NCBI RefSeq assembly: GCF_029762515.1
Contig: NZ_JARVGN010000017.1
Location: 1 to 11,643, forward strand
Length of the DNA: 11,643 bases
Direction of reading: 5' to 3'
DNA from: Methanocalculus sp.
GTDB taxonomy: Archaea; Halobacteriota; Methanomicrobia; Methanomicrobiales; Methanocorpusculaceae
Shown here: positions 147 through 11,643 of the stretch, in pieces
How the letters are laid out: every line of letters starts with the position of its first letter
How positions within the stretch are numbered: position 1 is the first letter of the stretch
Made by a program: the position numbers and the translations under genes
The notes under the pieces: model-generated
Seen by the model: only the letters and a program-made list of their open reading frames with translations
What the model was told of the DNA's origin: nothing
Database searches by the model: none

Positions 147-2006
147 TTACCTCAATTTCTCCCCGCATCCCTTACAAATTTGGTCTGAACTGTCGTTTTT
201 GGTTTTACATACAGGGCAGATCAGACTCTCATCCGGTTGCACTGGGTTGATTATCACCGGCTGTCCCATGCCTCCGCCTCCGGCAACAACCGTTGAGCCC
301 TGTGCTTGATGGGCGCTGCTACGCGCCGTTGCTGTACTGCCCATCGCACCAAGAGCTTTATTCATTACATCGGCCAGCCGATCTGCATTTTCCCCAAATG
401 TTTTCTGCATCATATCCATGTATTTCTGCTGGTCTTCCAGTCGGGCATCGAATAGTTCCTTCATCTTGTCAGAACCAAATTTCGCTTTCAATGCTTCTGC
501 CGCTGTAACTGGATCCTTAGCATTGAGCGCGAGAATCTGTTCAGGAGAAAGGGCGTTAGCACGTCTCATTATCTCGATATTGGTAAGATATTCTGCAGCT
601 TTAGGATCACCAGTGATTACAATTTTTGATTCTGTCGAAGAATTGTCAATATTTTTAAGTCTCTTGCCTTCATTCTCGGTGGCATGATCTTGGTCCTTAT
701 GTTCGAGTTCCTGCTCTCCGGCCTTTTTTTGAAGAATTGCCTCAATTAATTTCTTTTTAGCCTCGATAAGAGCTATCAAATCTTTTCGATCACGATCGCG
801 CTCATGATCCGCAATTTTATCCTTATGATCCAAATCATGACCTAGTTCCGTATCTTCAATATCGTGACGGTGCTTCTGCTGAGCTTTCTCAAGGATAATT
901 GCGCGGATAAATTCCTGATCTTCCCTTTTATGAATAAGTTCAGTCTTTAACTCCTCGATATCATTCTCTCGAATAATGCCCGCCTTTGCAAGCTCATGGA
1001 TAAAAGAATCAACTGATTCCTTATCGGAAAGTTTACTGATTTCATCATCAGACAGCAATTTCCGGATTTTTTGTTCCGTATCAAGGTCCAGTCCTGTCGC
1101 TGTAACTTTCTTCGTCCTTTCGATGCGCCCGTCGATGATATCTTGCCATTCAGATTCATCGTATCGGACAAACCTGAGACGTTCTAAGGAAAATCCATAA
1201 TTTTGCAGGATTGGAGCGACTCGTGTTTGAACCCCACCTTCAATCTCATCTTTCACTGAAAGATTTCCATAGAGATCATCCATTCTATACTCGCGTAATG
1301 TTGATTGGACGACGCTCTGAATATCATACGAAAGATCGGCCTGAAGATCGGTCAGAAGAATCTGACTCTTTCCTTTCAGAAGATTGTCAATAAATTTTTT
1401 TGAGTCGGCGTTTCTGAGGGTCAGCGTACCGCTGACCCCGACCGGGATCGAATCGGCAGTACGGATCTGTGTCTTATCAAAGGTGAAATCGAGGGTGACA
1501 ATTCCGTCGTCAACGAGAACGATGGTTGCGCGGTCATCGAGATTGATTGGCAGGTGGGCCTCAAGGAATGTGCCGATATCATAATAGCCGGGTCTGAGAT
1601 CGCCCTGATACGCACCGCCCTGGAACAGAAGAGCGCGTGTTCCTTCAGCCACGGTGACCGTCTTTTTGAAAATGCCACGAAGGTCTTCAACTTCAAATCT
1701 GCTGGCAAAATCTCCCGGTTTTCTCCTCCACTGGCGGGTGCGAGTGAAATCCTCTTCATTTGATCCTACAAATTTGCCCAGTCGAGATGGTCTCACACTT
1801 GTTCCGCAACCTGGGCAGTATTTTGCATCCGGCGGAATGGAAGAACCACAATTATTGCATACATAGGCTTCGGATTTTGTTCCGCATTGCGAGCAGAATT
1901 TTGCATCCCGTTCCAGCGTTTTTCCACATTTCAAGCATTGTTTGCTTCCAGAAGCATTTTCTGCAATCTTTTCTATTTTCCCCTTGAATAGTTCCATAAT
2001 AATCAC
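147..2006 (-). CDS. SPFH/band-7 (flotillin/stomatin-like) domain protein with N-terminal double zinc ribbon, long charged coiled-coil region and C-terminal zinc ribbon; no obvious TM helix. Likely true start is ATG at 1995-1997 (MELFKGK...); the 2006 start is a GTG.
   Basis: This is the 619-aa ORF from the track. The N-terminus carries the CxxC spacing CLKCG...CSQCG...CNNCG...CPGCG, a double zinc ribbon. The central segment SIPVGVSGTLTLRNADSKKFIDNLL...LREYRMDDLYGN...LQNYGFSLERLRFVRYD matches the SPFH/band-7 pattern (strand-rich core, LR...Ly.nR motif, GI/F-x-L-x-x-v-x-I). A ~250-aa E/K/D/H-rich helical region follows, typical of flotillins. The C-terminus ends CPVCK...CKGCG, a zinc ribbon. 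Confidence 0.75.
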   Translation of the reverse strand: MIIMELFKGKIEKIAENASGSKQCLKCGKTLERDAKFCSQCGTKSEAYVCNNCGSSIPPDAKYCPGCGTSVRPSRLGKFVGSNEEDFTRTRQWRRKPGDFASRFEVEDLRGIFKKTVTVAEGTRALLFQGGAYQGDLRPGYYDIGTFLEAHLPINLDDRATIVLVDDGIVTLDFTFDKTQIRTADSIPVGVSGTLTLRNADSKKFIDNLLKGKSQILLTDLQADLSYDIQSVVQSTLREYRMDDLYGNLSVKDEIEGGVQTRVAPILQNYGFSLERLRFVRYDESEWQDIIDGRIERTKKVTATGLDLDTEQKIRKLLSDDEISKLSDKESVDSFIHELAKAGIIRENDIEELKTELIHKREDQEFIRAIILEKAQQKHRHDIEDTELGHDLDHKDKIADHERDRDRKDLIALIEAKKKLIEAILQKKAGEQELEHKDQDHATENEGKRLKNIDNSSTESKIVITGDPKAAEYLTNIEIMRRANALSPEQILALNAKDPVTAAEALKAKFGSDKMKELFDARLEDQQKYMDMMQKTFGENADRLADVMNKALGAMGSTATARSSAHQAQGSTVVAGGGGMGQPVIINPVQPDESLICPVCKTKNDSSDQICKGCGEKLR

Positions 2007-2130
2007 CAGTAATACACTCGTTGTTCGGACCCCGTACAGTGCAATTTTTCAGGTTAAGACGGGCATATTTGACGATCGGTATGTGCGCGTATCAAATTCA
2101 GCGATTCAGGCTGGATTTTGCATACAAGTA

Positions 2131-2175
2131 AAATGGTTGCATTGTCCCGATCGGTCGTGCTTAATACAACCATTT
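2131..2175. promoter_or_regulatory. Inverted repeat / stem-loop: 9-bp arms AAATGGTTG (2131-2139) and CAACCATTT (2167-2175) with a 27-nt loop containing the palindrome CCGATCGG (2147-2154); followed on the + strand by a T-rich tract
   Basis: The complementarity is directly visible. It lies in the 246-nt gap between the stop of the ESCRT-III/PspA-like gene (2253) and the start of the SPFH gene (1997/2006). It could be an operator or attenuator for the SPFH gene, or a terminator-like structure. Confidence 0.35.
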
Positions 2176-2252
2176 ATATTCCTTTTCTCTCATTTGAGTG
2201 ATTGCCGTTCACTAATTATAAATCATGCTCATTTTATTCGGATGTGGTTTCC

Positions 2253-2855
2253 TCATTTTTTCAATCCTGAAGATAATGTGCGAAAGAAATCATTTCCCAC
2301 AGAATCAAATGTGAGTCGATTCATTTGCATCTCGGTAATGAGTGATTCGATGTATGATTCCTCAACAGAAGCGGTTACTTCCTGAAAGATATGTTCAGCG
2401 GTGATCTCTGAAAGTTCGTCCATTAGAGCCCTGTGTTCTTCTTTGCTGTAACTGGCTTTTGCCAGCCACCATTCGAGTGTATCTGGGTCTATAGCCTGCA
2501 TCTTCTTCCAGACACCCGAGCGTTTCAGCGTTGTTTGCTGCTCCTTTATGGCGATGATATTCGAAAGCACGCGAAGATCCTTCTCAAGATGCATGCATGT
2601 AGTGGCTTTAAGCTGCCAGGACTCGGAAATTGCTCTGATACGTTTTGCATAGAAGGATGTCCCCGCTTCTTCGCATCCGGATGATGCTGCCGAGAAGAGT
2701 GTTCTAATCTGCTGTTCCAGATCTGTTTTTTCGTTCTGCAGTTTCTGGATCTGATACTTCATCTGAGATTCTGCCTTTCTGAGCTCCCCAAGATTCATCG
2801 AATCAAAAGGAGTTGTGTGGAATAGCCTTGAGAAGATGCTCATCGATTGATGCAC
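2253..2855 (-). CDS. ESCRT-III/PspA (Snf7 / IM30) superfamily coiled-coil protein, paralog B; probable true start ATG at 2841-2843 (MSIFSRLF...), 196 aa
   Basis: This is the 200-aa ORF. The N-terminal MSIFSRLF resembles the N-terminal amphipathic motif of ESCRT-III (CHMP4 MSVFGKLF) and PspA (MGIFSRF). The long helical hairpin has heptad character. The segment LSNIIAIKEQQTTLKRSGVWKKMQAIDPDTLE resembles the Snf7 helix-3/4 region (LK..k.m.idkvd.l.d). It aligns along its whole length with the adjacent 2871-3473 ORF. AGGTGG lies about 10 nt upstream of ATG 2843 on the minus strand. Confidence 0.6.
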   Translation of the reverse strand: MHQSMSIFSRLFHTTPFDSMNLGELRKAESQMKYQIQKLQNEKTDLEQQIRTLFSAASSGCEEAGTSFYAKRIRAISESWQLKATTCMHLEKDLRVLSNIIAIKEQQTTLKRSGVWKKMQAIDPDTLEWWLAKASYSKEEHRALMDELSEITAEHIFQEVTASVEESYIESLITEMQMNRLTFDSVGNDFFRTLSSGLKK

Positions 2856-2870
2856 CCACCTGATACTCTC

Positions 2871-3473
2871 TCAATCTTCTAGCTCCGCGATGGCTTTCTC
2901 AAGATCCTTTTCTATTGAAAAGAGACCGCCTGCTTCTTCCAGCTCCAGAGTTCCTGTCTCAACGCTGTTCCAGATCTCAAACATCTGCTTTTCAGCTTCA
3001 TCGAGATCATTGTCTGAGTCCGCAATATCCAGAGCGAAGATCTGGTTCAGATCGTCAACAACGTTCTCGAATCCCTTGCCTGCGAGATTTACCTGGATGA
3101 GCGAACTTTCAAAGGCATCGGGTGATATACTCTGAATCTTATCCCAAATTTGTGTTTTCTGGAGATCACGCTGGTACTTCTTGATTACCACAAGGTTTGA
3201 GATAAACATGTACTGCTTGTGCAGTGCCATAAAGTTACGAACCTTTAGTTTGGCACTCATGTCCATCTGCTTGAGCTCTTGTGCAAGCATCTTCTTTTTA
3301 ATGAGGTCGGCACCAACACCTTCTCCGAATTTTTGTTTCTTCTCTCGTTCAATCCTGTCGATTTCCTTACGAAGGCGATTTATACGACTTTTGAGCTTGA
3401 GTTCTTCTTCCTGCAGTTCAGAAACCTTGAGTTTCTCAATCCGGTTACGGCGGAAATGTTCTGTGATTTTCAT
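2871..3473 (-). CDS. ESCRT-III/PspA superfamily coiled-coil protein, paralog A (200 aa), first gene of the leftward operon
   Basis: It has the same length and co-linear similarity to paralog B (ELQEEELKLKSRINRLRKEIDRIEREKKQKF vs ELRKAESQMKYQIQKLQNEKTDLEQQIRTLF; ISNLVVIKKYQRDLQKTQIWDKIQSISPDAFE vs LSNIIAIKEQQTTLKRSGVWKKMQAIDPDTLE). The C-terminal tail is acidic. Only 27 nt separate its stop from the start of paralog B. GGTGA lies 6 nt upstream of the ATG, and a TATA box sits about 35 nt upstream. Confidence 0.55.
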   Translation of the reverse strand: MKITEHFRRNRIEKLKVSELQEEELKLKSRINRLRKEIDRIEREKKQKFGEGVGADLIKKKMLAQELKQMDMSAKLKVRNFMALHKQYMFISNLVVIKKYQRDLQKTQIWDKIQSISPDAFESSLIQVNLAGKGFENVVDDLNQIFALDIADSDNDLDEAEKQMFEIWNSVETGTLELEEAGGLFSIEKDLEKAIAELED

Positions 3474-3506
3474 CTTGTGTCACCGATCGCGAATTGTCGT
3501 CAATCC

Positions 3507-3515
3507 TATATAAAA
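3507..3515. promoter_or_regulatory. TATA-box-like element TATATAAAA (minus-strand sense TTTTATATA preceded by purine-rich GGAGGAAA, a BRE-like element) in the divergent intergenic region; probably the promoter of the leftward ESCRT-III/PspA-like operon
   Basis: It is positioned about 35 nt upstream of the ATG at 3473 on the minus strand, with a purine-rich tract immediately upstream, as in archaeal BRE/TATA promoters. A second AT-rich candidate (ATAATATTAAT, 3534-3544) faces the rightward operon. Confidence 0.4.
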
Positions 3516-3517
3516 TT

Positions 3518-3534
3518 TCCTCCTTTACGGAGGA
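3518..3534. promoter_or_regulatory. Perfect dyad TCCTCC-N5-GGAGGA between the two divergent promoters; candidate operator
   Basis: TCCTCC (3518-3523) and GGAGGA (3529-3534) are exact reverse complements separated by TTTAC. It is located between the TATA candidates of the two divergent operons. Confidence 0.35.
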
Positions 3535-3564
3535 TAATATTAATGGCCAATATGTAGTGCTCCG

Positions 3565-4131
3565 ATGTGGAGGTATTTTTTTATAGGAATGGTGCGTACA
3601 GATCCAATAAGAATGGATTATCTCCTGGTTGTGGATTATCACTCTGACGCGGAACGTAAACGGATTGATGCCACCATCGAGCGGTGGAAATCAAAGAAAA
3701 ACGTGCGCAAAGAGAAAGGCGTATTGATCCGGGCAAGTGATGACGATATCGAAGCCTTTCTGCAAGATCTTTATGCGCGACTGGATAGGGGGAGCGAGAG
3801 TGTTCGGATGTACAAAGCAGAGGCATGTAGTCCGGACGTTGGAGAGGTATCACGAACACTTCGATATGAGGCAGAGATTGATCAAGAGACTGTCCGACAA
3901 TTCTTACGATATATTCTCAATAAACTCAATGGTAGTTATGAAGGAGTTCGGGATGGCGTAGAATCATACACAGTCTATACCCGGAAAGGTCAGGCGTCAA
4001 CAGGTTTCGTCTGGGCGGATCATCCAGGGAAAACTAAATTGACAATTTTCGTGAGCGGTTTTGGTGATGTGGTCTCTTTTGTTGCAGAGCGGATTGACGA
4101 AGAGCTGAAAGCATTTCTGGGAGGGGTATAA
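3565..4131 (+). CDS. Hypothetical protein (188 aa from ATG 3565; alternative starts ATG 3589 or 3613), first gene of the rightward operon; no recognisable domain
   Basis: This is a long ORF with no stops. Its stop TAA (4129-4131) overlaps by 1 nt the ATG of the next gene (TAATG), which supports a translated, co-transcribed gene. There is no convincing Shine-Dalgarno sequence for any start, so it may be leaderless. I could not match the sequence to a known family. Confidence 0.55.
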   Translation: MWRYFFIGMVRTDPIRMDYLLVVDYHSDAERKRIDATIERWKSKKNVRKEKGVLIRASDDDIEAFLQDLYARLDRGSESVRMYKAEACSPDVGEVSRTLRYEAEIDQETVRQFLRYILNKLNGSYEGVRDGVESYTVYTRKGQASTGFVWADHPGKTKLTIFVSGFGDVVSFVAERIDEELKAFLGGV

Positions 4132-6044
4132 TGGCTGGTCAAAAAAAGACTGATTCACATTCAAAATATGTTCATCATTATCGACTTGGAACAACGCAAT
4201 ATAAAGCATCGCGATTTCTTGAGGCAATTAAGTCATTTGATAATGCATTGAAATATAAACCACAATCATACTGGGCGTGGAATGAAAAAGGGAATGCGCT
4301 CAGAAAACTGGGTCGGCTTGAAGAGGCGTTGAAATGCTATAACCATGCTACTTCCCTTGACAGATCAAAATCATATCCATTCGCGTATATAGGTAGGGGA
4401 GACGTCCATCGTGAACAAAAAACGTATAAAAAAGCAATTTCTAACTATAATCAAGCCTTAAAAATCAAAAGGCATCCATTTGCCTTAAATGGTAAAGCAC
4501 AGTGCTTTTATGAAACAGGTAACAAAAATGAAGCATTTCAGCTAGCGGAAGAGGCAATACTTTTGCGTCCTTATTTTGAACATCCGTATATTTTAACCGG
4601 AGATATTCTATTTGACCGTGGTTTGTACAAAGATGCAAAGGAAAGGTATGAAAGAGCTATCGGATTAATCGATACAGGTTCAAGTGAACTTCGTGCAGCT
4701 TTACATAAAAAAATACAGGATTGCAGTATGAAGATTGATGCCGAATCTCCGGGGATTAAGGACGAGCCTGATATTGATCCGGAAGATATTGGTGCTCTTC
4801 TCTCTCAACTTCGCTCGGGAAATGACAGTGGGCGTGCAGAAGCATCGTATAATCTTGATATCTGTGCGAAAAAGAACCTGGCAGGCCAGATCATCAGACA
4901 CCGGCCCTTTCCTCTCTTTGAGTCTGCTCTGGGTGATCCGGTTCCGGAGGTGCGGAAACAAGTTCAATGGATTCTTGGTAATCTTGCACTGCACGGGTTT
5001 TCCTACGAAGTCACTGAATCTGGAGTATTGGGCCTTCTTGCAGCAAATCTTGGCGATACCAATGAAGAAGTGCGTAGTGCAGCAGCATGGACACTTGCCG
5101 TCATAGCTGAGGTCGGACAGGGTATTCGAGTGGCAGAAACGGGTATGATCCACTCCTGTATCCAGCTGTTAGATGACAGTAATGCTGGAGTCCGTTCTTC
5201 AGCGGCCCTTGCTCTGGATAAAGTTGCCTTTTATGCAAGCCCGGAGCCAATTGTTCATGCCGATGGGGTTGTGAACCTTGCTGGGCATATCCTGGATACG
5301 GATACCGGAGTACGTGCGAGTACCCTATGGGCGCTCTGGTCTATCGCCTTCCGAGGATATGTCGACAGTATATGCGATGCTCCGGACCTGATCACCGATC
5401 TTAAGCAGTCAGCCCAGAGCAGAAACCTTGAAATTCGGAAAGCTGCGATTTCTCTGATTGGGGAACTTTCAACCGTTTCTGATAAATCGTTCTTGGAAAA
5501 TAAAGATCTTGAGCGAATTCTCATTTCCGGGATTGGTTCCCGAAGTAACCGTGTTCGGGGTGCCTCGATATGGGCTGTTGGGAGATGGGCAGATGCAGGA
5601 ATTGCTACCTCCTTGATTCGGAGCGGGGTTAAGGAAGCAATGAGAAACTGCCGGGATGACCACACAAATGTTCACGTTTTTTACCACAGTGAACTCCGCT
5701 GGAAGCAACGCTCTATTGGCGGTATCGCGGACGATGTCCTGAAAAAGCTGGATGAACCCACGGCCGCTCCAGATGATCTTGCTCCCTGCGAAGCTGATTA
5801 TCGTACCGCATATTTTGTCGTAAATAGTTATGTAGAACATTTGGCCCAAAGCGAACTTCATGAGGCTCGCAAAAAAGTCGTTCATCTGGAACAATTTGTA
5901 TGTGGTCCTACTCTTGAGGTAGTCCGGTATCAAAGGGATCACCTGGATCTCTATATCCAACAAGAAATTGATGAAATTCCTGAAGAGTTCGTCAATGAAG
6001 CAGAGTTATTAAAAGAGGAAATCCTCCGCAGAGCGCTGGCATAG
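4131..6044 (+). CDS. TPR-repeat + HEAT-repeat (PBS-lyase-type) scaffold protein, 637 aa
   Basis: The N-terminal ~200 aa carries TPR-like 34-residue repeats (AIKSFDNALKYKPQSYWAWNEKGNALRKLGRLEEALKCYNHATSLD ... AISNYNQALKIKRH ...). The middle carries at least 7 HEAT_PBS-like repeats with the signature D.d..VR..A..aLg.i (DPVPEVRKQVQWILGNLA, DTNEEVRSAAAWTLAVIA, DSNAGVRSSAALALDKVA, DTDTGVRASTLWALWSIA, SRNLEIRKAAISLIGEL, SRSNRVRGASIWAVGRWA). A strong RBS, GGAGGGG, lies 6-11 nt upstream. Confidence 0.8.
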   Translation: MAGQKKTDSHSKYVHHYRLGTTQYKASRFLEAIKSFDNALKYKPQSYWAWNEKGNALRKLGRLEEALKCYNHATSLDRSKSYPFAYIGRGDVHREQKTYKKAISNYNQALKIKRHPFALNGKAQCFYETGNKNEAFQLAEEAILLRPYFEHPYILTGDILFDRGLYKDAKERYERAIGLIDTGSSELRAALHKKIQDCSMKIDAESPGIKDEPDIDPEDIGALLSQLRSGNDSGRAEASYNLDICAKKNLAGQIIRHRPFPLFESALGDPVPEVRKQVQWILGNLALHGFSYEVTESGVLGLLAANLGDTNEEVRSAAAWTLAVIAEVGQGIRVAETGMIHSCIQLLDDSNAGVRSSAALALDKVAFYASPEPIVHADGVVNLAGHILDTDTGVRASTLWALWSIAFRGYVDSICDAPDLITDLKQSAQSRNLEIRKAAISLIGELSTVSDKSFLENKDLERILISGIGSRSNRVRGASIWAVGRWADAGIATSLIRSGVKEAMRNCRDDHTNVHVFYHSELRWKQRSIGGIADDVLKKLDEPTAAPDDLAPCEADYRTAYFVVNSYVEHLAQSELHEARKKVVHLEQFVCGPTLEVVRYQRDHLDLYIQQEIDEIPEEFVNEAELLKEEILRRALA

Positions 6045-6052
6045 GGGATAAT

Positions 6053-7234
6053 ATGAACGTGGATCTCAGTGGGTTTCTGACGAAAGAACTGAAGAAAACA
6101 ATACGGGAATATCGAGCAGCATGTTCTGAAAATGATTCCCGCATAGTCCGGGAGAAAGCCCATATCTGTGCGATTCTGAGTCAAAAATTAGCTGAGCAGT
6201 CGCCATCATTTCGGAATAAATACCTCTCAGATGCAAAAAAATGGGAATTTATTGCATCCGGAAAAAATCCGGTGTCCTTGGATATCAGTAATAGAGATCC
6301 CTCCCGACGACCAGAAACTCAGGATTCTGCGAATGAATCGGATCTGGATTTTGATGCAACGTCGTTGATATCATCATCATCGGTCAGGTGGGATGATATC
6401 GGTGGTCTGGATGAGGTTAAACGTCTGGTAAAGGAAACGGTAGTCATCGCGGGTCTTCGGAAACCTGCTGCAATCCAGCCATGGAAGGGAATTCTTCTCT
6501 TTGGCCCTCCAGGGACGGGAAAGACGATGATTGCAGCAGCGGCTGCAGGGAGTCTGCATGCGACTTTCTTTGATGTGAAAGCCGATCGTATTCTCTCAAA
6601 ATATTTTGGGGAGTCATCAAAGATCATTGCCTCTCTCTACGCATCAGCAAGGAAGCGGGCACCTTCGATTGTGTTTATTGATGAGTTTGATGCGCTCGGT
6701 TCAGCAAGAAGTGAAGGTACCGGCGAAGCAACACGAAAGCTGCTCTCTTCTCTTCTCACCGAACTTGATGGACTGCAAGACAAGAACGCTGATCGGCTTC
6801 TTCTCACTATGGCAGCCACCAATACTCCCTGGGATCTTGATCCGGCAGTTCTGTCTCGTTTTCCCCGGCGAATTTTTGTGACGCTTCCGGATGAGGCATC
6901 CTGTGCAGCAATCATCAGACTTCATCTGCGCGGTCTTGAAGTCGCTGATCTTGAAATTTCAGATCTTGGGAGGAGGTGTGTGGAACAGGGGTATTCAGGT
7001 AGAGATATTCAGAACCTCTGCCAGCAAGCGATCTGGGCCATGATCCACGAGGAAAATCCACAACTGGAGAAGCTCGCAGATCTCACGTTTGATGAGTTGA
7101 GTGAACAAGTGCTGAAGACAAGAGGTCTGTTTGCCGGTGATTTTACGGAGGCATTTGAGATTGTGCGTTCGCCAGTGCGCGAGGCCGACCTGGACCGGTA
7201 TAGGCAATGGAGTGAGGAGTATGGGGGGATGTGA
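6053..7234 (+). CDS. Vps4/CdvC-like (katanin/spastin 'meiotic' clade) AAA+ ATPase with helical MIT-like N-terminal domain, 393 aa
   Basis: The Walker A motif is GPPGTGKT, preceded by PWKGILLF, the PW-x-G-ILL signature of this clade. The Walker B motif is IVFIDEFD. The second region of homology, TNTPWDLDPAVLSRFPRRIFVTLPD, aligns closely with Vps4 [25 protein letters not shown]. The C-terminus YRQWSEEYGG resembles the Vps4, katanin and spastin C-terminal W..E(F/Y)G. The N-terminal ~70 aa is an all-helical region, consistent with an MIT three-helix bundle. The RBS AGGGG lies 5 nt upstream. The gene is spaced 8 nt after the previous gene. Confidence 0.9.
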   Translation: MNVDLSGFLTKELKKTIREYRAACSENDSRIVREKAHICAILSQKLAEQSPSFRNKYLSDAKKWEFIASGKNPVSLDISNRDPSRRPETQDSANESDLDFDATSLISSSSVRWDDIGGLDEVKRLVKETVVIAGLRKPAAIQPWKGILLFGPPGTGKTMIAAAAAGSLHATFFDVKADRILSKYFGESSKIIASLYASARKRAPSIVFIDEFDALGSARSEGTGEATRKLLSSLLTELDGLQDKNADRLLLTMAATNTPWDLDPAVLSRFPRRIFVTLPDEASCAAIIRLHLRGLEVADLEISDLGRRCVEQGYSGRDIQNLCQQAIWAMIHEENPQLEKLADLTFDELSEQVLKTRGLFAGDFTEAFEIVRSPVREADLDRYRQWSEEYGGM

Positions 7235-7546: not shown

Positions 7547-8251
7547 TTAAATTTTTGAATTCATCCATTTCCGTACAATTGTCTTTACAAGATTTTGTGC
7601 ATCATGAAGTTCCATCGGGTTTTCAGGTTTCTGAAATTTTTTTCGAGCATGTCGGGCCTCTTTTCCAATTGCGTCGTAACTCTGGGCTGTTTGTTTGAAT
7701 CGCCCAATCTCGCTATAAAATTCTCCATTTTTCTTCACAGGTGCATAACCGTCTTCCTGGACTAATTCAATAATATTATAGAGCACACCAAATGAGTTGA
7801 AATCGTGGTCTATGAGTTCATTAACTCGCTGGACTCTCTCATCTGTTTGTGCGAGCCGAATTAATTTGATAATTTTGTTATCTGGTGGAGATTCAACAGT
7901 AGTTCCATCTTTTTTTGTAACGGTCACTTGGACTCGTGCGCGTATATGAATTGAAGCGGTTAAAGGTTCAAGAAAAATTGTCTTTTTACCGTCTTCATCA
8001 ATGAATTGAATTCCTCCTCGTTTTATCAAATCCGACGAATTGAAAAGTAGTTTTCTTGCTGCATTGATATTGATCAACAATTCATCGGCTTTTGCCTTGA
8101 CAGATTTATGATCGGAAGAATTCTCCAATGATGTAAATTCAAGTAGATATTTTTCACCTTCATTGAGAACACGAAAGTCAGTTGACTGGAGAATTTCACT
8201 CAATTCTGCTAGATCATTCGCATCTCCGTGAAGATCAACCTGCCACTTCAT
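7547..8251 (-). CDS. Hypothetical protein (234 aa), last gene of the Type I R-M operon (24 nt after the hsdS stop), AT-rich; function unknown
   Basis: This is a clean ORF with AGGT 8 nt upstream of the ATG at 8251, co-directional with hsdS and closely spaced to it. I recognise no known motifs in the protein, which is a mixed alpha/beta, Lys-rich sequence. Confidence 0.65.
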   Translation of the reverse strand: MKWQVDLHGDANDLAELSEILQSTDFRVLNEGEKYLLEFTSLENSSDHKSVKAKADELLININAARKLLFNSSDLIKRGGIQFIDEDGKKTIFLEPLTASIHIRARVQVTVTKKDGTTVESPPDNKIIKLIRLAQTDERVQRVNELIDHDFNSFGVLYNIIELVQEDGYAPVKKNGEFYSEIGRFKQTAQSYDAIGKEARHARKKFQKPENPMELHDAQNLVKTIVRKWMNSKI

Positions 8252-8275: not shown

Positions 8276-9799
8276 TCATTTTTTTGCCTTTATTCGCTCA
8301 AGCAGCACACTTGCTGGTTCATACTCCCGTTCCTCCCGCCGGGCCAGTTCTGCCTCGGTGGACACCAGCTGTCCGGAAAATGCCTGGGCGAGGATGGACT
8401 GCCGGAGTGTTTCGGTGCGTTCTTTAGCAGCGGTGATGCGGGCCTCGATCTGATCGGCGAGGGCGAATAGAGCGTCGGCCCGGTGGACAATTTCATCCTG
8501 TTCGGAAAGCGGAGGGAGGGGGATTGGTAAAGATTTGATATTACTCAAATTTAACCTGGCTCGACCCACACCGTGAATCGATTCTACCATTCTCTTCCTT
8601 GTTGATTCAGTATTGATCGCGAAGATGACGTATTTATTATTAGCAATTTCTTGATGCGGATTGAGTCTAATGCAATCAGCTTTAACAATTGCGGGTCCGA
8701 AATCATCTGGGATTTGACAAGCCCGAGGGATTGGGTCACCTAGTGTTCCAATAACAAGATCCTTTGGAAAAACTTGATGTTTTTTTAATTTTGTGAAATG
8801 ATCTGTTGAGATATGCGATTTCACATCGATGAAATTACCATCGCCTAAGTTTTGTAATCGTATGACTCTTGGACCGGAATCAGTATAATGCTCAGTTTTC
8901 AGATTCGATCCAAAAGGACCGTCTGTTATTGAATTTGCTTCGATACCAGATACCTGATCTATACTAGCCCAAGTCCATTTATCTGAAACAATTGGTAAAT
9001 CACTGATTTCTATTCCTTTTGGTTCACGATATTTTTCTTTCCACTTCGAATTTTTCGGAGTTTTTCCTTTATCTTGGAAAGTCTGTATTTGTTCTCTTTC
9101 CCAAGCCATTCGTTTTTGATTTAAGATATTTCCCACAGCCTCTTTTGCATCTGTAATGTCCGGATTCTCCGACCGCCAGTCCTCCGTCAGCCGCCCTTCG
9201 CACGCAGCGGCGAGCACCGCCTGCCTGAACTGCTGCACGATGCCCGGCACCCTGTCAAGGCGGGCCTGTGCGGCGTCCAGCCGGGCGAACAACGCCTCTA
9301 TGGCAGCTACGATGCGGTGCTGTTCGGCGAGAGGGGGGAGGGGGATTTTCAACTCTTTTAATTTTGTTGCATTACAATTTGGCTGAGCAATTCCTGAAAT
9401 ATTCTGAGAAATTTGGGTCCAATATTCGGATGTGCTAAAAAATAGACTCATGAATTTTTGATTGACATTTCTGTTTGGTCTAAGCCGAATGAGATACGAG
9501 GCAAAAATGCTATCTGGGCAGGAAGATATCAGATAGCTCTTGCCTGTAGTTGCACCAGTTCGTGCAAAAACAATGTCTCCAGACTCCAATTTATATTTGG
9601 AAATTTGTTCTTCCTTGATGCTGCAAAACGGAACATCATTCCAATCAACAAAATCATTCTGGATATCTGTAATTCGCAAAAAATGAGGTCCAACTTTATT
9701 TTTATCAGCTGAAGCCGTATATCCGTATTTTATTTCATCGGAGATATCGTTAATAGTTGATTGAATCCAACCTTCTGGCAACTCACTATTCTGCGGCAT
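8276..9799 (-). CDS. hsdS: Type I restriction-modification specificity subunit HsdS, copy 1 (507 aa), with two TRDs
   Basis: The N-terminus has MPQNSELPEGW, the canonical LPEGW HsdS start. The central conserved region is LPPLAEQHRIVAAIEALFARLDAAQARLDRV... The C-terminal conserved region is LPPLSEQDEIVHRADALFALADQIEARI...LLERIKAKK. The two conserved regions show the internal repeat structure typical of HsdS, flanking two variable TRDs of about 150 and 210 aa. Confidence 0.9.
   Translation of the reverse strand: MPQNSELPEGWIQSTINDISDEIKYGYTASADKNKVGPHFLRITDIQNDFVDWNDVPFCSIKEEQISKYKLESGDIVFARTGATTGKSYLISSCPDSIFASYLIRLRPNRNVNQKFMSLFFSTSEYWTQISQNISGIAQPNCNATKLKELKIPLPPLAEQHRIVAAIEALFARLDAAQARLDRVPGIVQQFRQAVLAAACEGRLTEDWRSENPDITDAKEAVGNILNQKRMAWEREQIQTFQDKGKTPKNSKWKEKYREPKGIEISDLPIVSDKWTWASIDQVSGIEANSITDGPFGSNLKTEHYTDSGPRVIRLQNLGDGNFIDVKSHISTDHFTKLKKHQVFPKDLVIGTLGDPIPRACQIPDDFGPAIVKADCIRLNPHQEIANNKYVIFAINTESTRKRMVESIHGVGRARLNLSNIKSLPIPLPPLSEQDEIVHRADALFALADQIEARITAAKERTETLRQSILAQAFSGQLVSTEAELARREEREYEPASVLLERIKAKK
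8279..8527. repeat. HsdS C-terminal conserved block, copy 1; direct repeat of 9854-10102 (~85-90% nt identity by eye, identical runs up to 37 nt)
   Basis: The identical runs include GAGGATGGACTGCCGGAGTGTTTCGGTGCGTTCTTT and AGAGCGTCGGCCCGGTGGACAATTTCATCCTGTTCGG. The block is GC-rich (~60%). Confidence 0.85.
9164..9349. repeat. HsdS central conserved block, copy 1; direct repeat of 10670-10855 (~90% nt identity by eye)
   Basis: Shared runs include ATGCGGTGCTGTTCGGCGAGAGGGGGGAG, GCGTCCAGCCGGGCGAACA and GATGCCCGGCACCCT. The block is GC-rich. Confidence 0.85.
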
Positions 9800-9850: not shown

Positions 9851-11245
9851 TTAAATAGAAGATTTAATACGCTCCAGCAGCACTAGTGCTGGTTCATATT
9901 CTCGCCTCTCCCGCTGGGCCAGCTCCGCCTCGGTAGGCACCAGCTGCCCGGAAAATGCCTGGGTGAGGATGGACTGCCGGAGTGTTTCGGTGCGTTCTTT
10001 GGCGGTGGCGACGCGGGCCTCGATCTGGTCTGCGAGGGCGAAGAGAGCGTCGGCCCGGTGGACAATTTCATCCTGTTCGGGGATAGGTGGAAGGGGGATT
10101 GCAATCGACTTTAAAATAGTACCATTTATTCCTGGACGAGTTTGTCCTCGAATTTGATTTTGAATTTGTTGCTGAACAGGAATTGCTCCTCTCAGTGTTT
10201 GAAATAAATAATGGGGAGATACTAAATCTTGATTCGAAGTAATGCGATAGACATGCTTGGTGATAATTGCGGTCTCACAATTTTCGGGAAAGACGCAACA
10301 TCTGCCAATTGTTGCCATGACAGTGATTAACAAATCCAGGGGCCTTGCAGTGTATTTTCTTAATTCTTCATATTTTTCCGGACTTATTCGGTGTTCTTTT
10401 CCATAGGAAAAAAATCCGTTCTGTACATTATCAATTCCAATTGCTAAAATCCCAGAATCTTGAAACTCTGAATGAAGTAGATTGCTGCCAAAAGGGCCAC
10501 TTTGGATAGAACGAGCCTCTGGTGAGGCCAGTTGCTCTATGGTTGCCCAACACCATTTATCGGGTATATCATTTAAACCAGAAGTATCGGGCGTTTGGAT
10601 TTTCTTTTTTCCGGACGATAGCGTATTAAGTGTTATTTCAAGGTATTTTCGTGAATTCTCTATATTCGGATGTTCCGCCCGCCAATCCTCCGTCAGCCGC
10701 CCATCGCACGCAGCAGCGAGCACCGCCTGCCGGAACTGCTGTAGGATGCCCGGCACCCTATCAAGGCGGGCTTGTGCAGCGTCCAGCCGGGCGAACAGCG
10801 CCTCGATGGCGGTGACTATGCGGTGCTGTTCGGCGAGAGGGGGGAGTGGTATTGTCAAGGCTTTGACAATCTTTTGAGTTATAAGAGGTTGCGAGCTCCC
10901 AGTCTGGATACTAATCCAATCTACGGTCTGAAAATACCTGATTAACCAATTGAACAAATCTTGAGAATTGGGTTTTATAACTAAAGTGTTGTCAGTAACC
11001 CAGGCATTTTTTTTGTATACTGTAAGTGCTCCCGCTGCGCCAACTCTACCGAGGGTAATAATTGGTGATGTGAAATTATAGCTATCAGTATAGCCTATGG
11101 GCCCTCCTGCCCCTGCAACAGGGTAAGGCTGATCTGGAATTTTACTATAGTCTTCCCTTTTTATGTACTTTCCACTGGCAATTGAGATGAGAGAGCCCAA
11201 ATCTGAAGTCTCCCACCCCTCCGGCAGCTCACTCTTCTGTTGCAT
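9851..11245 (-). CDS. hsdS: Type I restriction-modification specificity subunit HsdS, copy 2 (464 aa), with two different TRDs
   Basis: It starts MQQKSELPEGWE. Its central block (LPPLAEQHRIVTAIEALFARLDAAQARLDRV...) and C-terminal block (...EQDEIVHRADALFALADQIEARV...LLERIKSSI) are near-identical to copy 1, whereas the two TRDs are unrelated to those of copy 1. The start overlaps the hsdM stop by 17 nt. Confidence 0.9.
   Translation of the reverse strand: MQQKSELPEGWETSDLGSLISIASGKYIKREDYSKIPDQPYPVAGAGGPIGYTDSYNFTSPIITLGRVGAAGALTVYKKNAWVTDNTLVIKPNSQDLFNWLIRYFQTVDWISIQTGSSQPLITQKIVKALTIPLPPLAEQHRIVTAIEALFARLDAAQARLDRVPGILQQFRQAVLAAACDGRLTEDWRAEHPNIENSRKYLEITLNTLSSGKKKIQTPDTSGLNDIPDKWCWATIEQLASPEARSIQSGPFGSNLLHSEFQDSGILAIGIDNVQNGFFSYGKEHRISPEKYEELRKYTARPLDLLITVMATIGRCCVFPENCETAIITKHVYRITSNQDLVSPHYLFQTLRGAIPVQQQIQNQIRGQTRPGINGTILKSIAIPLPPIPEQDEIVHRADALFALADQIEARVATAKERTETLRQSILTQAFSGQLVPTEAELAQRERREYEPALVLLERIKSSI
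9854..10102. repeat. HsdS C-terminal conserved block, copy 2 (direct repeat of 8279-8527)
   Basis: See the partner block 8279-8527. Both copies lie in the same orientation on the minus strand. Confidence 0.85.
10670..10855. repeat. HsdS central conserved block, copy 2 (direct repeat of 9164-9349)
   Basis: See the partner block 9164-9349. Confidence 0.85.
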
Positions 11246-11643
11246 ACCCGTTCCCCATCAGGTCGAGAATCGCCTGTAGTTCGTCGACCGCGGCCTCGAG
11301 TTCGTCGATGGCCTCGGCAGCGAGTTCCTCCGGAAGTGGCAGGTCCTCGCTGGACTCCAGCGACTCGTCGCGCAGCCACTTCAGCGAGTCGATCTTGTAG
11401 TCTCGCTCCTGCAGCTCGGTGATATGGAACGAGCGCCAGCGGTCGGCGGGGGAGTCAGCGGCATTGCGCTTTGCCCGGGCGTTGGGGTCGGGGCCGTAGC
11501 AGTGCTCGAACTCGGCGAAATGCTCCGGGGTGAGGGGGCGGTCCTTCTTGGTGATCTTGGGCACGTTGGTGCGGGCGTCGTAGACCCAGGTGTGCTCGGT
11601 GGGCGCGCCCCTGGTGAAGAAAATCACGTTCGTCTTGGTGCCC
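11229..11643 (-). CDS. hsdM: Type I R-M methyltransferase subunit HsdM, C-terminal ~138 codons (5' end lies beyond the window edge)
   Basis: The frame is open to the window end (...GTKTNVIFFTRGAPTEHTWVYDART...), and the track 'start' at 11627 is a GTG inside the gene. NVIFFTKG...VWFYD is the conserved C-terminal core of HsdM, followed by the acidic helical tail that contacts HsdS. GC is about 65%. Confidence 0.85.
   Translation of the reverse strand, partial: GTKTNVIFFTRGAPTEHTWVYDARTNVPKITKKDRPLTPEHFAEFEHCYGPDPNARAKRNAADSPADRWRSFHITELQERDYKIDSLKWLRDESLESSEDLPLPEELAAEAIDELEAAVDELQAILDLMGNGYATEE

Follow-up and report, generated by a model that had tools for sequence, protein, structure and literature searches.

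What kind of system is encoded by a compact gene cluster in which two ESCRT-III-like proteins, a Vps4-family AAA ATPase, an SPFH/zinc-ribbon protein and a TPR/HEAT repeat protein stand side by side in Methanocalculus sp.? To our knowledge, ESCRT systems have among archaea been studied experimentally only in Crenarchaeota and Asgard archaea. We analysed the cluster within a window of 11,643 nucleotides, and consider it probable that it represents the form which the euryarchaeal Main-clade ESCRT system takes in Methanomicrobiales. Its core comprises the ESCRT-III-like proteins A and B, the Vps4-family ATPase, arCOG08177 and arCOG09748, to which the lineage has added a soluble SPFH protein with flanking zinc ribbons and a TPR-HEAT scaffold protein.

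ORF calling on the window found six ORFs between positions 147 and 7234, co-localised in two divergent arms as a sequence-only reading had described. On the minus strand lie A (2871-3473, 200 aa), B (ORF 2253-2855, 200 aa) and the SPFH/zinc-ribbon protein (147-2006, 619 aa). The plus strand carries the arCOG08177-type gene (ORF 3565-4131, 188 aa), the TPR/HEAT gene (4131-6044), which shares the expected TAATG stop/start overlap with the gene before it, and the ATPase gene (6053-7234). A seventh cluster gene, arCOG09748-like, enters at the left edge on the minus strand (1-74) with its first 24 codons (MLREEDITCAKDLIAIAEVVIEGG), and the rest lies beyond the contig end. Hydropathy analysis showed no transmembrane segments in any cluster protein, which counts against the ESCRT reading.

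A and B are paralogs with 26% identity (E=1e-16), and their predicted fold, together with profile evidence that is weak yet consistent, points to the ESCRT-III (Snf7/CdvB) superfamily and away from PspA and SMC. In both, about 200 aa accommodate a long hairpin of helices alpha1 and alpha2 and, after it, shorter helices, and in their family an acidic linker leads to a conserved C-terminal helix, S-I-E-K-D-I-E-K-x-L-E, which does not fit what we take to be the MIM1 spacing. Neither protein has a winged-helix extension. A Foldseek search with A returned CdvB2 and CdvB as best matches and Vipp1 as third (probability 0.63), and ESCRT-III or Vipp1 made up more than 20 of the best 50 matches. Comparison of the A/B family with five eukaryotic Snf7-family proteins by hhalign gave 60% (P=8.7e-5) over 145 collinear columns, against 0.7% for the reversed control, and the family profile matched CdvB in the PDB with E=0.013. 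A and B themselves fell below every Pfam Snf7 or PspA threshold and had no direct Pfam match; Snf7 was matched by 3 of 90 family members (best E 2.5e-4) and was the sole Pfam family matched by more than one of them. No cluster protein is better conserved than A, which is 65-90% identical between genera, more than the ATPase, and is probably arCOG09747, 'Snf7 family'. B evolves fast, with orthologs 58-63% identical in the closest relatives and 26-40% in other genera. It probably starts at the ATG at 2843 with the N-terminus MSIFSRLF, giving 196 aa, the length of the deposited protein; these residues are similar to the amphipathic motif at the N-terminus of PspA and CHMP proteins.

We weighed whether A and B could instead be generic coiled-coil or SMC-like 'chromosome assembly' proteins, with a Cdc48- or PAN-like unfoldase merely nearby. 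NCBI names A a 'chromosome assembly protein', the missing direct Pfam matches leave room for such a view, and on the ATPase the CDC48 and PAN models reach scores close to that of CdvC. However, the Snf7 match runs collinearly along the entire core and stands above its reversed control, the Foldseek list is dominated by the ESCRT-III superfamily, and the length of 200 aa with hairpin, short helices, acidic linker and C-terminal helix fits ESCRT-III. The linkage of A, B and the AAA gene survives changes of gene order, the ATPase ends in a C-terminal helix of Vps4/katanin type, and the published arCOG curation assigns Snf7 to the family and Vps4 to the ATPase. We therefore regard this alternative as very unlikely.

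The proteins had been called 'ESCRT-III/PspA-like'. A second alternative is a PspA-like membrane-stress or repair module in which A and B would behave like PspA, Vipp1 or LiaH and be recruited by the SPFH protein, as PspA is by the SPFH protein YdjI in B. subtilis; a damaged membrane would be sealed, with no budding of vesicles, and the ATPase would recycle the polymer. The SPFH gene is genetically linked to A and B, an SPFH-PspA link is described for Bacillus (PMC10936438, PMC7619361), the N-terminus of B is close to that of E. coli PspA (MGIFSRF), B orthologs are labelled 'PspA/IM30 family' in UniRef, and Vipp1 stands third in Foldseek. Against this, hhalign of the family with E. coli PspA gave 0.3%, no signal, where Snf7 gave 60%; Pfam PspA_IM30 gave no match, and the Vps4-family ATPase, arCOG08177 and arCOG09748 are typical of ESCRT loci and not of Psp loci. 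ESCRT-III thus stood, by fold and weak profile evidence, while the PspA part of the label did not. The stress module is unlikely in our judgement, although it is not fully exclusive of the ESCRT reading, since it assigns another cellular role to the same machine.

The ATPase contains a single AAA cassette (Pfam AAA, 125 bits) and matches Vps4_C at 21.8 bits (cutoff 21.3). Katanin p60 is the best match to its lid and C-terminal helix, up to the last residues ...ADLDRYRQWSEEYGG. Whole-protein model scores were similar for CDC48 (191 bits), CdvC (183 bits, far under the NCBIfam model cutoff of 650) and PAN (176 bits). Because these scores against Cdc48 D2, CdvC and PAN are alike, the clade was assigned from the C-terminal helix together with the published tree: in the protein set and tree of PMC10936438, the orthologs WP_255333475.1, WP_042700467.1 and WP_095642221.1 are Vps4. 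By these sequence comparisons the protein is a Vps4-family (meiotic-clade) ortholog, in agreement with the Vps4 placement first proposed for it.

The proposed 'MIT-like N-terminus' fared differently. The N-domain of about 70 aa is conserved and helical, but MIT was detected neither by HMMER nor by hhalign: there was no Pfam match in the protein or in 14 orthologous N-domains, the N-domain profile retrieved no MIT protein from the PDB, and hhalign against a validated MIT alignment gave 0.4%. Because the N-domain has no MIT similarity by sequence, a canonical MIT-MIM contact is putative at most, although the domain could be a very divergent MIT.

The 188-aa ORF, taken at first for an unknown protein, had no Pfam match at E<=0.1. 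Its start is probably at 3613, which gives 172 aa beginning MDYLLVVDY..., as in homologs. The 172-aa protein combines an N-terminal Cas2-like ferredoxin fold with a C-terminal TBP/helix-grip fold, carries the N-terminal motif VDYxxDAERKRIDY, and is a member of the known ESCRT-associated family arCOG08177 (Cas2-like + TBP/DUF3568). The N-terminus of the seventh gene matches M. taiwanensis WP_255333480.1 and Methanogenium orthologs in the pattern M-x4-D-[IL]-x-C-x3-L-x3-AE, and WP_255333480.1 is arCOG09748 in Table S1 of PMC10936438. The SPFH gene ends about 70-90 nt upstream of this gene, which takes the same place in orthologous loci, where it is complete.

In the 619-aa protein, Pfam Band_7/SPFH scored 36.7 bits (cutoff 23.6) over residues 118-281, and zinc ribbons were found as a double ribbon at the N-terminus and one at the C-terminus (DZR 51 bits, Zn_Ribbon_1 52 bits). 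The middle region is long, charged and helical. The protein had been described as a flotillin-like SPFH protein with a double zinc ribbon; SPFH and zinc ribbons were recovered, but there was no Pfam match to flotillin. No membrane anchor was found (the top 19-residue Kyte-Doolittle mean was 0.85), and the N-terminal place that is held by a transmembrane segment or hairpin in stomatin, HflK/C and flotillin is taken here by a zinc ribbon. The SPFH gene adjoins B in most loci, with 31-61% identity. The TPR-HEAT protein carries both expected repeat types, N-terminal TPR_1/2 at about 80 bits and central HEAT/ARM repeats (HEAT 79 bits). This component varies among lineages: the loci of Methanogenium and Methanoculleus encode orthologs of full length, as does M. 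taiwanensis at another place in the locus, and in Methanocorpusculum short TPR/zinc-ribbon proteins replace it.

The genes of the cluster occur together in at least 20 loci from Methanogenium, Methanoculleus, Methanoplanus, Methanocalculus taiwanensis, Methanocorpusculum, Methanoregula and others. They are thus co-conserved across Methanomicrobiales, and their co-localisation is far above chance. The A-B-AAA linkage persists through changes of gene order, with Methanoregula showing an A-B-AAA form in which all genes are co-directional. Kinase and PP2C phosphatase genes adjoin orthologous clusters. As the sequence-only reading had held, there is no CdvA-like PRC-barrel gene, neither in the scanned ORFs of the window nor among the called genes of related loci.

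At a distance of 1 kb, the right-hand neighbours of the cluster are two hsdS genes and a fragment of hsdM, and these Type I restriction-modification genes had been offered as a clue to defence. An envelope-associated anti-virus defence or conflict system would also accord with PADLOC models of the defence ATPase IetA, whose scores on the AAA cassette reach 124 bits, and with one MAG that carries two cluster copies (L006, L007). However, the restriction-modification genes and a 234-aa neighbour are missing from all 26 related loci, where the flanking genes encode, among others, methyl-coenzyme M reductase, transporters, kinases and phosphatases. Since the Type I neighbourhood is not conserved, the link to defence is unsupported. 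The IetA match is limited to the generic AAA cassette and is outscored by CdvC, CDC48 and katanin, no other cluster protein had a meaningful PADLOC match, and the conservation of A between genera is unlike that of fast-evolving defence genes. We regard the defence reading as very unlikely.

The 139-bp divergent promoter region (3474-3612) contains two TATA-like boxes within a 32-nt inverted repeat, bearing out the TATA/dyad element noted earlier, with the box for A at about 3505-3516 on the minus strand and that for the rightward arm at about 3575-3586. A CTCC-N5-GGAG palindrome occurs twice, at 3520-3532 and 3560-3572, and within the window it is confined to the promoter region (0.19 occurrences expected). 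Position and 40-bp spacing of the pair are kept in orthologous loci. The paired palindromes are probably the operator of a shared regulator, and the conserved palindrome at both divergent promoters is a new detail.

The cluster had been thought to match no characterised system. Although the sequence-only reading had most of the biology right, this claim does not hold: Makarova et al. 2024 (mBio 15:e00335-24, PMC10936438) have already described, by computation, the 'Main clade' ESCRT system of Euryarchaeota. That system comprises Vps4, ESCRT-III, arCOG09748 and arCOG08177, which a kinase and a phosphatase often accompany, and its carriers include Methanomicrobiales; orthologs from Methanocalculus taiwanensis and Methanocorpusculum are listed in the paper by accession. 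The cluster shares with it the Vps4-family ATPase, two Snf7-family proteins (arCOG09747, arCOG09749), arCOG08177 and arCOG09748, as well as the kinase and PP2C phosphatase near orthologous loci. These genes are encoded together in the window, with Vps4, ESCRT-III and arCOG08177 complete and arCOG09748 present as its first 24 codons. The cluster is therefore a member of an already published kind of system, and since the existence and general nature of that system are on record, our analysis adds detail and no new category.

The differences from the published Main clade lie in gene content and layout. The text on this clade has no SPFH/zinc-ribbon or TPR-HEAT protein, whereas the window cluster has both, and measured against that description these two are lineage-specific additions. 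The cluster is also arranged in two divergent arms with a common palindromic promoter element. Among the rows listed, Table S1 has no entry for the SPFH protein or the B-type paralogs of M. taiwanensis and M. bavaricum, which is no proof that the full table lacks them. For a different clade, 'Meth_adaptin', the same paper reports that ESCRT systems have an SPFH/coiled-coil/zinc-ribbon partner, and its Halo_FHA neighbourhood tables contain HEAT proteins. Judged by description, the SPFH partner of the Meth_adaptin system of Methanosalsum zhilinae has the same architecture as the 619-aa protein, but the window cluster lacks the adaptin-appendage, GOLD and ProX proteins of that system. ESCRT-III-type proteins and a Vps4-type ATPase are common to the cluster and crenarchaeal CdvABC, as the best Foldseek matches of A also indicate, whereas the cluster has no CdvA/PRC-barrel protein, A and B have no winged-helix extension and the CdvC score is under its cutoff. 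With B. subtilis ydjGHI-pspA it shares the genetic coupling of an ESCRT-III-superfamily polymer to an SPFH protein and to a partner with a zinc ribbon; it differs from bacterial PspA/Vipp1 in having no PspA_IM30 match, a dedicated Vps4-family ATPase and an archaeal host.

Gene content, folds, orthology and co-conservation come from the analysis itself; polymerisation, contact between ATPase and filament, and the cellular role are inferred. Taking the cluster as a Main-clade ESCRT system, we propose that both arms would be transcribed from the single divergent promoter region and that A and B may polymerise together on the membrane, on its cytoplasmic side, at a site marked by an SPFH oligomer and adaptor-like proteins. 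The ATPase, as a hexamer, would then pull out subunits, so that the polymer is remodelled or disassembled. The outcome may be budding or scission of the membrane, by which vesicles would form and proteins be sorted, or the repair of the membrane. Hosts of the Methanomicrobiales lineage have FtsZ, and a role in cell division is therefore unlikely. More tentatively, the locus could form a mosaic sub-type of its own within the archaeal ESCRT machinery, in which a soluble SPFH cage protein, recruited by way of its zinc ribbons, would together with the TPR-HEAT scaffold replace adaptin-like proteins in selecting cargo or site, a non-MIT N-domain of the ATPase would engage the filaments and a dedicated regulator, binding the paired CTCC-N5-GGAG operators, would switch the module as a whole; we regard this as possible but doubtful.

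The compact, strongly conserved locus bears on the question of what ESCRT does in FtsZ-containing Euryarchaeota, and its palindrome gives a handle for tracing the regulator and the inducing condition. A link between SPFH proteins and the ESCRT-III superfamily is also found in eukaryotes, between flotillin and ESCRT-0, and in bacteria, where PspA is linked with YdjI. Because this link recurs in both, the locus could serve to test whether SPFH-ESCRT-III coupling is ancient, and, if the mosaic sub-type is real, it would offer a tractable prokaryotic model for that coupling.

All six open reading frames of the divergent cluster were found in the window where the sequence-only reading had placed them, and Pfam supported four of the six. 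The 619-aa protein (147-2006, minus strand) carried a double zinc ribbon, a Band_7/SPFH domain (36.7 bits against a cutoff of 23.6) and a C-terminal zinc ribbon. The 637-aa protein (4131-6044, plus strand) carried TPR and HEAT repeats, and the claimed TAATG overlap leading into its gene was present in the window sequence. The 393-aa ATPase (6053-7234, plus strand) matched AAA with 125 bits and Vps4_C with 21.8 bits against a cutoff of 21.3. No transmembrane segment was found in any cluster protein.

The gene models were adjusted at three points. The gene for B, the second ESCRT-III-like protein (2253-2843, minus strand), most likely starts at 2843, with the N-terminus MSIFSRLF and a length of 196 aa matching the deposited protein. 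The first gene of the other arm, G4 (3613-4131, plus strand), read earlier as an unknown 188-aa protein, most likely starts at 3613 with the N-terminus MDYLLVVDY and would encode 172 aa, because nearly all homologs are 170-173 aa long with the same start. At the contig end, the minus strand of bases 74-3 encodes MLREEDITCAKDLIAIAEVVIEGG. In Methanogenium (MFGDGDLTCIENLLKPAEIIIDSG) and M. taiwanensis (MPGRGDLNCAKKLVADAERILQAG), the gene after the SPFH gene has a matching N-terminus. The segment 1-74 (minus strand) is therefore the start of a seventh, arCOG09748-like cluster gene, truncated by the contig end. In Methanogenium, Methanoculleus and M. taiwanensis, a full-length ortholog of it occupies the position after the SPFH gene.

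Database names for these proteins were inconsistent. In UniRef, orthologs of B went under 'PspA/IM30 family protein' and an ortholog of G4 under 'DUF2110 family protein'. For the ATPase the entries read '26S protease regulatory subunit', 'Cell division protein' or 'ATP-binding protein'; none of the names of A, B, G4 and the ATPase reflected the published ESCRT assignment. A role of A in chromosome assembly, as its NCBI name 'chromosome assembly protein' would have it, finds little support, and this automatic label was rejected as uninformative.

At 26% identity (E = 1e-16), A (2871-3473, minus strand, 200 aa) and B are paralogs. Searching A, B and G4 directly against Pfam, NCBIfam and PADLOC gave no meaningful family match; matches of these proteins to TOTE Mu-Gam (E 0.012), Ppl and pneumococcal PspA were rejected as noise from coiled coils at chance level. 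An exhaustive HMM search of 1.84 billion proteins showed that the A/B family is small, with 205 representatives at E <= 1e-3. Pfam Snf7 was matched by three of 90 family members, and no other family was matched by more than one. The structure of A predicted with AF2 from a 32-sequence alignment (pLDDT 77) showed a long helical hairpin (residues 17-51 and 57-99); beyond it come short helices, an acidic linker that is disordered, and helices at the C-terminus. More discriminating was Foldseek, which ranked the CdvB2 filament and S. islandicus CdvB first and second for this model (probabilities 0.96 and 0.90), and Vipp1, Asgard ESCRT-IIIB, CHMP2A/3, CHMP1B and Snf7 made up much of the top 50, all with weak E-values. 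When the family profile was compared with PDB sequences, CdvB matched at E 0.013 and was alone judged meaningful; the designed coiled coils and SNAP-25 that dominated the list were dismissed. The family aligned by hhalign with five eukaryotic ESCRT-III proteins (60% probability, P = 8.7e-5); the 145 collinear columns span the whole Snf7 core, and the reversed template control gave 0.7%. The five template sequences were validated by Pfam at E-values from 1e-16 to 1e-58.

The placement of A and B in the ESCRT-III superfamily is thus well supported, and they did not come out as generic SMC-like coiled coils, which would have refuted the earlier proposal. Of the earlier label 'ESCRT-III/PspA-like', the first half stands on Foldseek and on the Snf7 and CdvB profiles. 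The PspA half found no support in hhalign of the family (E. coli PspA, 0.3%), and A and B are nearer to Snf7/CdvB. A PspA-like repair role is nevertheless the main functional rival for the cluster: the N-terminus of B resembles, by inspection, the amphipathic motif with which PspA and CHMP proteins begin, and a link between SPFH proteins and PspA has been discussed (PMC10936438).

Whole-protein scores of the ATPase were close together for CDC48 D2 (191 bits), CdvC (183) and PAN (176). Double-cassette Cdc48 proteins led the PDB list merely through the summing of two domains, and the top single-cassette match was katanin p60 (193 bits), with an alignment reaching the very C-terminus. When the comparison was limited to the lid and the C-terminal helix, katanin, fidgetin-like 1 and spastin matched as well as Cdc48, katanin being the best, and the terminal ADLDRYRQWSEEYGG aligned with katanin ADLEKYEKWMVEFGS. 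This katanin-type C-terminal match and the Vps4_C match support a place in the meiotic/Vps4 clade, in agreement with the Vps4/katanin assignment made from sequence. However, the 'MIT-like N-terminus' claimed for the same protein was overstated. Orthologs share a conserved N-terminal domain of about 70 residues, and four separate MIT tests were all negative: Pfam gave no MIT match in the whole protein or in 14 orthologous N-domains, MIT proteins were absent from the N-domain profile results against the PDB, and hhalign against a validated MIT alignment gave 0.4%.

Neighbourhoods in relatives were gathered via A orthologs, and a scan of the genome collection yielded 22 loci, nearly all of them from Methanomicrobiales. 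A few MAG contigs with the cluster were binned as bacteria, Archaeoglobi or Thermoplasmata. The arrangement of the window was kept in Methanoplanus endosymbiosus, Methanocorpusculum and M. taiwanensis: one arm carries the ATPase, G4 and variable TPR/zinc-ribbon genes, the other A, B and SPFH/DZR. We then searched all 26 related loci with the seven window proteins by tblastn. A, B and the ATPase were present in essentially all sufficiently long loci, G4 and SPFH in loci assigned to Methanomicrobiaceae, Methanocorpusculum and Methanocalculus, and full-length TPR-HEAT only in a subset. Co-conservation of the cluster genes in related genomes, on which the earlier proposal had turned, was thus borne out. 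Methanoregula-type and related loci (L020-L026) had a simpler co-directional A-B-ATPase order without adjacent G4 and SPFH genes, with an arCOG09748-like gene several kilobases upstream in L020, L022 and L023.

Identity of A was 61-88% in loci with the common divergent arrangement and 45-50% in the Methanoregula type; across the 26 loci it was 47-71% for the ATPase and 26-62% for B. Conservation decreased in the order A, ATPase, G4, SPFH, B. Across genera, A was more conserved than the AAA ATPase, and its paralog B was much faster-evolving. One Methanomicrobiaceae MAG (MFD02416.bin.2.146) had two full cluster copies on two contigs (L006 and L007), which could be duplication or strain heterogeneity. 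Near-identical clusters were also seen on contigs that binning had placed in MAGs of Spirochaetaceae, Cloacimonadota, Bacilli, Clostridia, Paludibacter and Sphaerochaeta (including L009, L012 and L017). Mis-binning of archaeal contigs appears more likely here than transfer to bacteria, because protein A from these contigs was 61-79% identical to that of the window and gene order was retained.

The right flank does not appear to belong to this conserved unit. A 234-aa ORF (7547-8251, minus strand) between the ATPase and restriction-modification (R-M) genes is outside the conserved cluster, with no Pfam, NCBIfam or PADLOC match and no tblastn homolog in the 26 loci. The R-M genes comprise two tandem Type I hsdS genes (8276-9799 and 9851-11245, minus strand), with HsdS conserved regions as direct repeats, and an hsdM 3' end (11229-11627) overlapping the second. 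The repeats common to both hsdS genes are 265 nt (83% identical) and 203 nt (88% identical), and this tandem layout could permit specificity shuffling through recombination. Adjacency to these genes had been taken as a hint of defence, but no R-M genes were among the called genes of four related loci inspected; a defence role has little support and was rejected, since the R-M neighbours appear not to be conserved.

The novelty claimed for the system was wrong, as it is already in Makarova et al. (2024; PMC10936438). Their 'Main' clade of euryarchaeal ESCRT systems includes Methanomicrobiales and contains Vps4, ESCRT-III, arCOG09748 and arCOG08177; a kinase and a phosphatase are frequent further members, and sorting of phosphorylated proteins was proposed as its role. 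Kinase and PP2C genes likewise flank orthologous clusters of the window's system. That paper lists as Vps4 the M. taiwanensis ATPase ortholog WP_255333475.1 (59% identical) as well as WP_042700467.1 and WP_095642221.1, two ATPases of Methanocorpusculum, and it lists as arCOG09748 the gene after the M. taiwanensis SPFH gene, WP_255333480.1. For M. bavaricum, WP_042699366 is given as arCOG09747 'Snf7 family' and WP_042699369 as arCOG08177; we infer that these are A and G4, because the accessions fall numerically between or beside the B ortholog WP_042699363. Measured against the Main-clade text, SPFH/DZR and TPR-HEAT are extra genes specific to this lineage, an SPFH/coiled-coil/zinc-ribbon component being described there for the Meth_adaptin clade and not for the Main clade. 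A 2025 review and a 2024 Psp survey gave the same general picture and reported no experimental work on these euryarchaeal systems. The cluster is therefore a known kind of system, described computationally and not yet by experiment; the biology first read from the sequence was largely right.

Our direct observations concern composition, folds, orthology, linkage and common promoter elements. By analogy with established ESCRT-III/Vps4 biology, A and B would co-polymerise on the membrane and the ATPase hexamer would pull subunits out, remodelling the polymer. The site or cargo might be chosen by SPFH, arCOG08177, arCOG09748 and TPR-HEAT, with budding or scission, or repair, as the outcome. Since these methanogens use FtsZ, the cell-division role suggested earlier is unlikely.

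A and G4 are separated by 139 bp, in which two TATA-like boxes were found within a 32-nt inverted repeat, confirming the TATA/dyad region of the sequence-only reading, and each box lay about 30-40 nt upstream of its gene. The palindrome CTCC-N5-GGAG occurred twice in the window against 0.19 expected, both times between A and G4 (3520-3532 and 3560-3572, 40 bp apart), with one copy upstream of each divergent TATA-like box. The palindrome and its position were kept in the Methanogenium, Methanoculleus, Methanoplanus, M. taiwanensis and Methanocorpusculum loci, mostly with the 40-bp spacing (9902/9942 in L005, 7850/7890 in L006, 5788/5828 in L009 and 4715/4755 in L010), and the intergenic length was about 133-141 bp in orthologous loci. 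Conservation of the palindromes, their spacing and the intergenic length supports functional coupling of the two arms. The pair is probably an operator common to both arms and points to one dimeric regulator governing them, a new detail on the regulation of the cluster.
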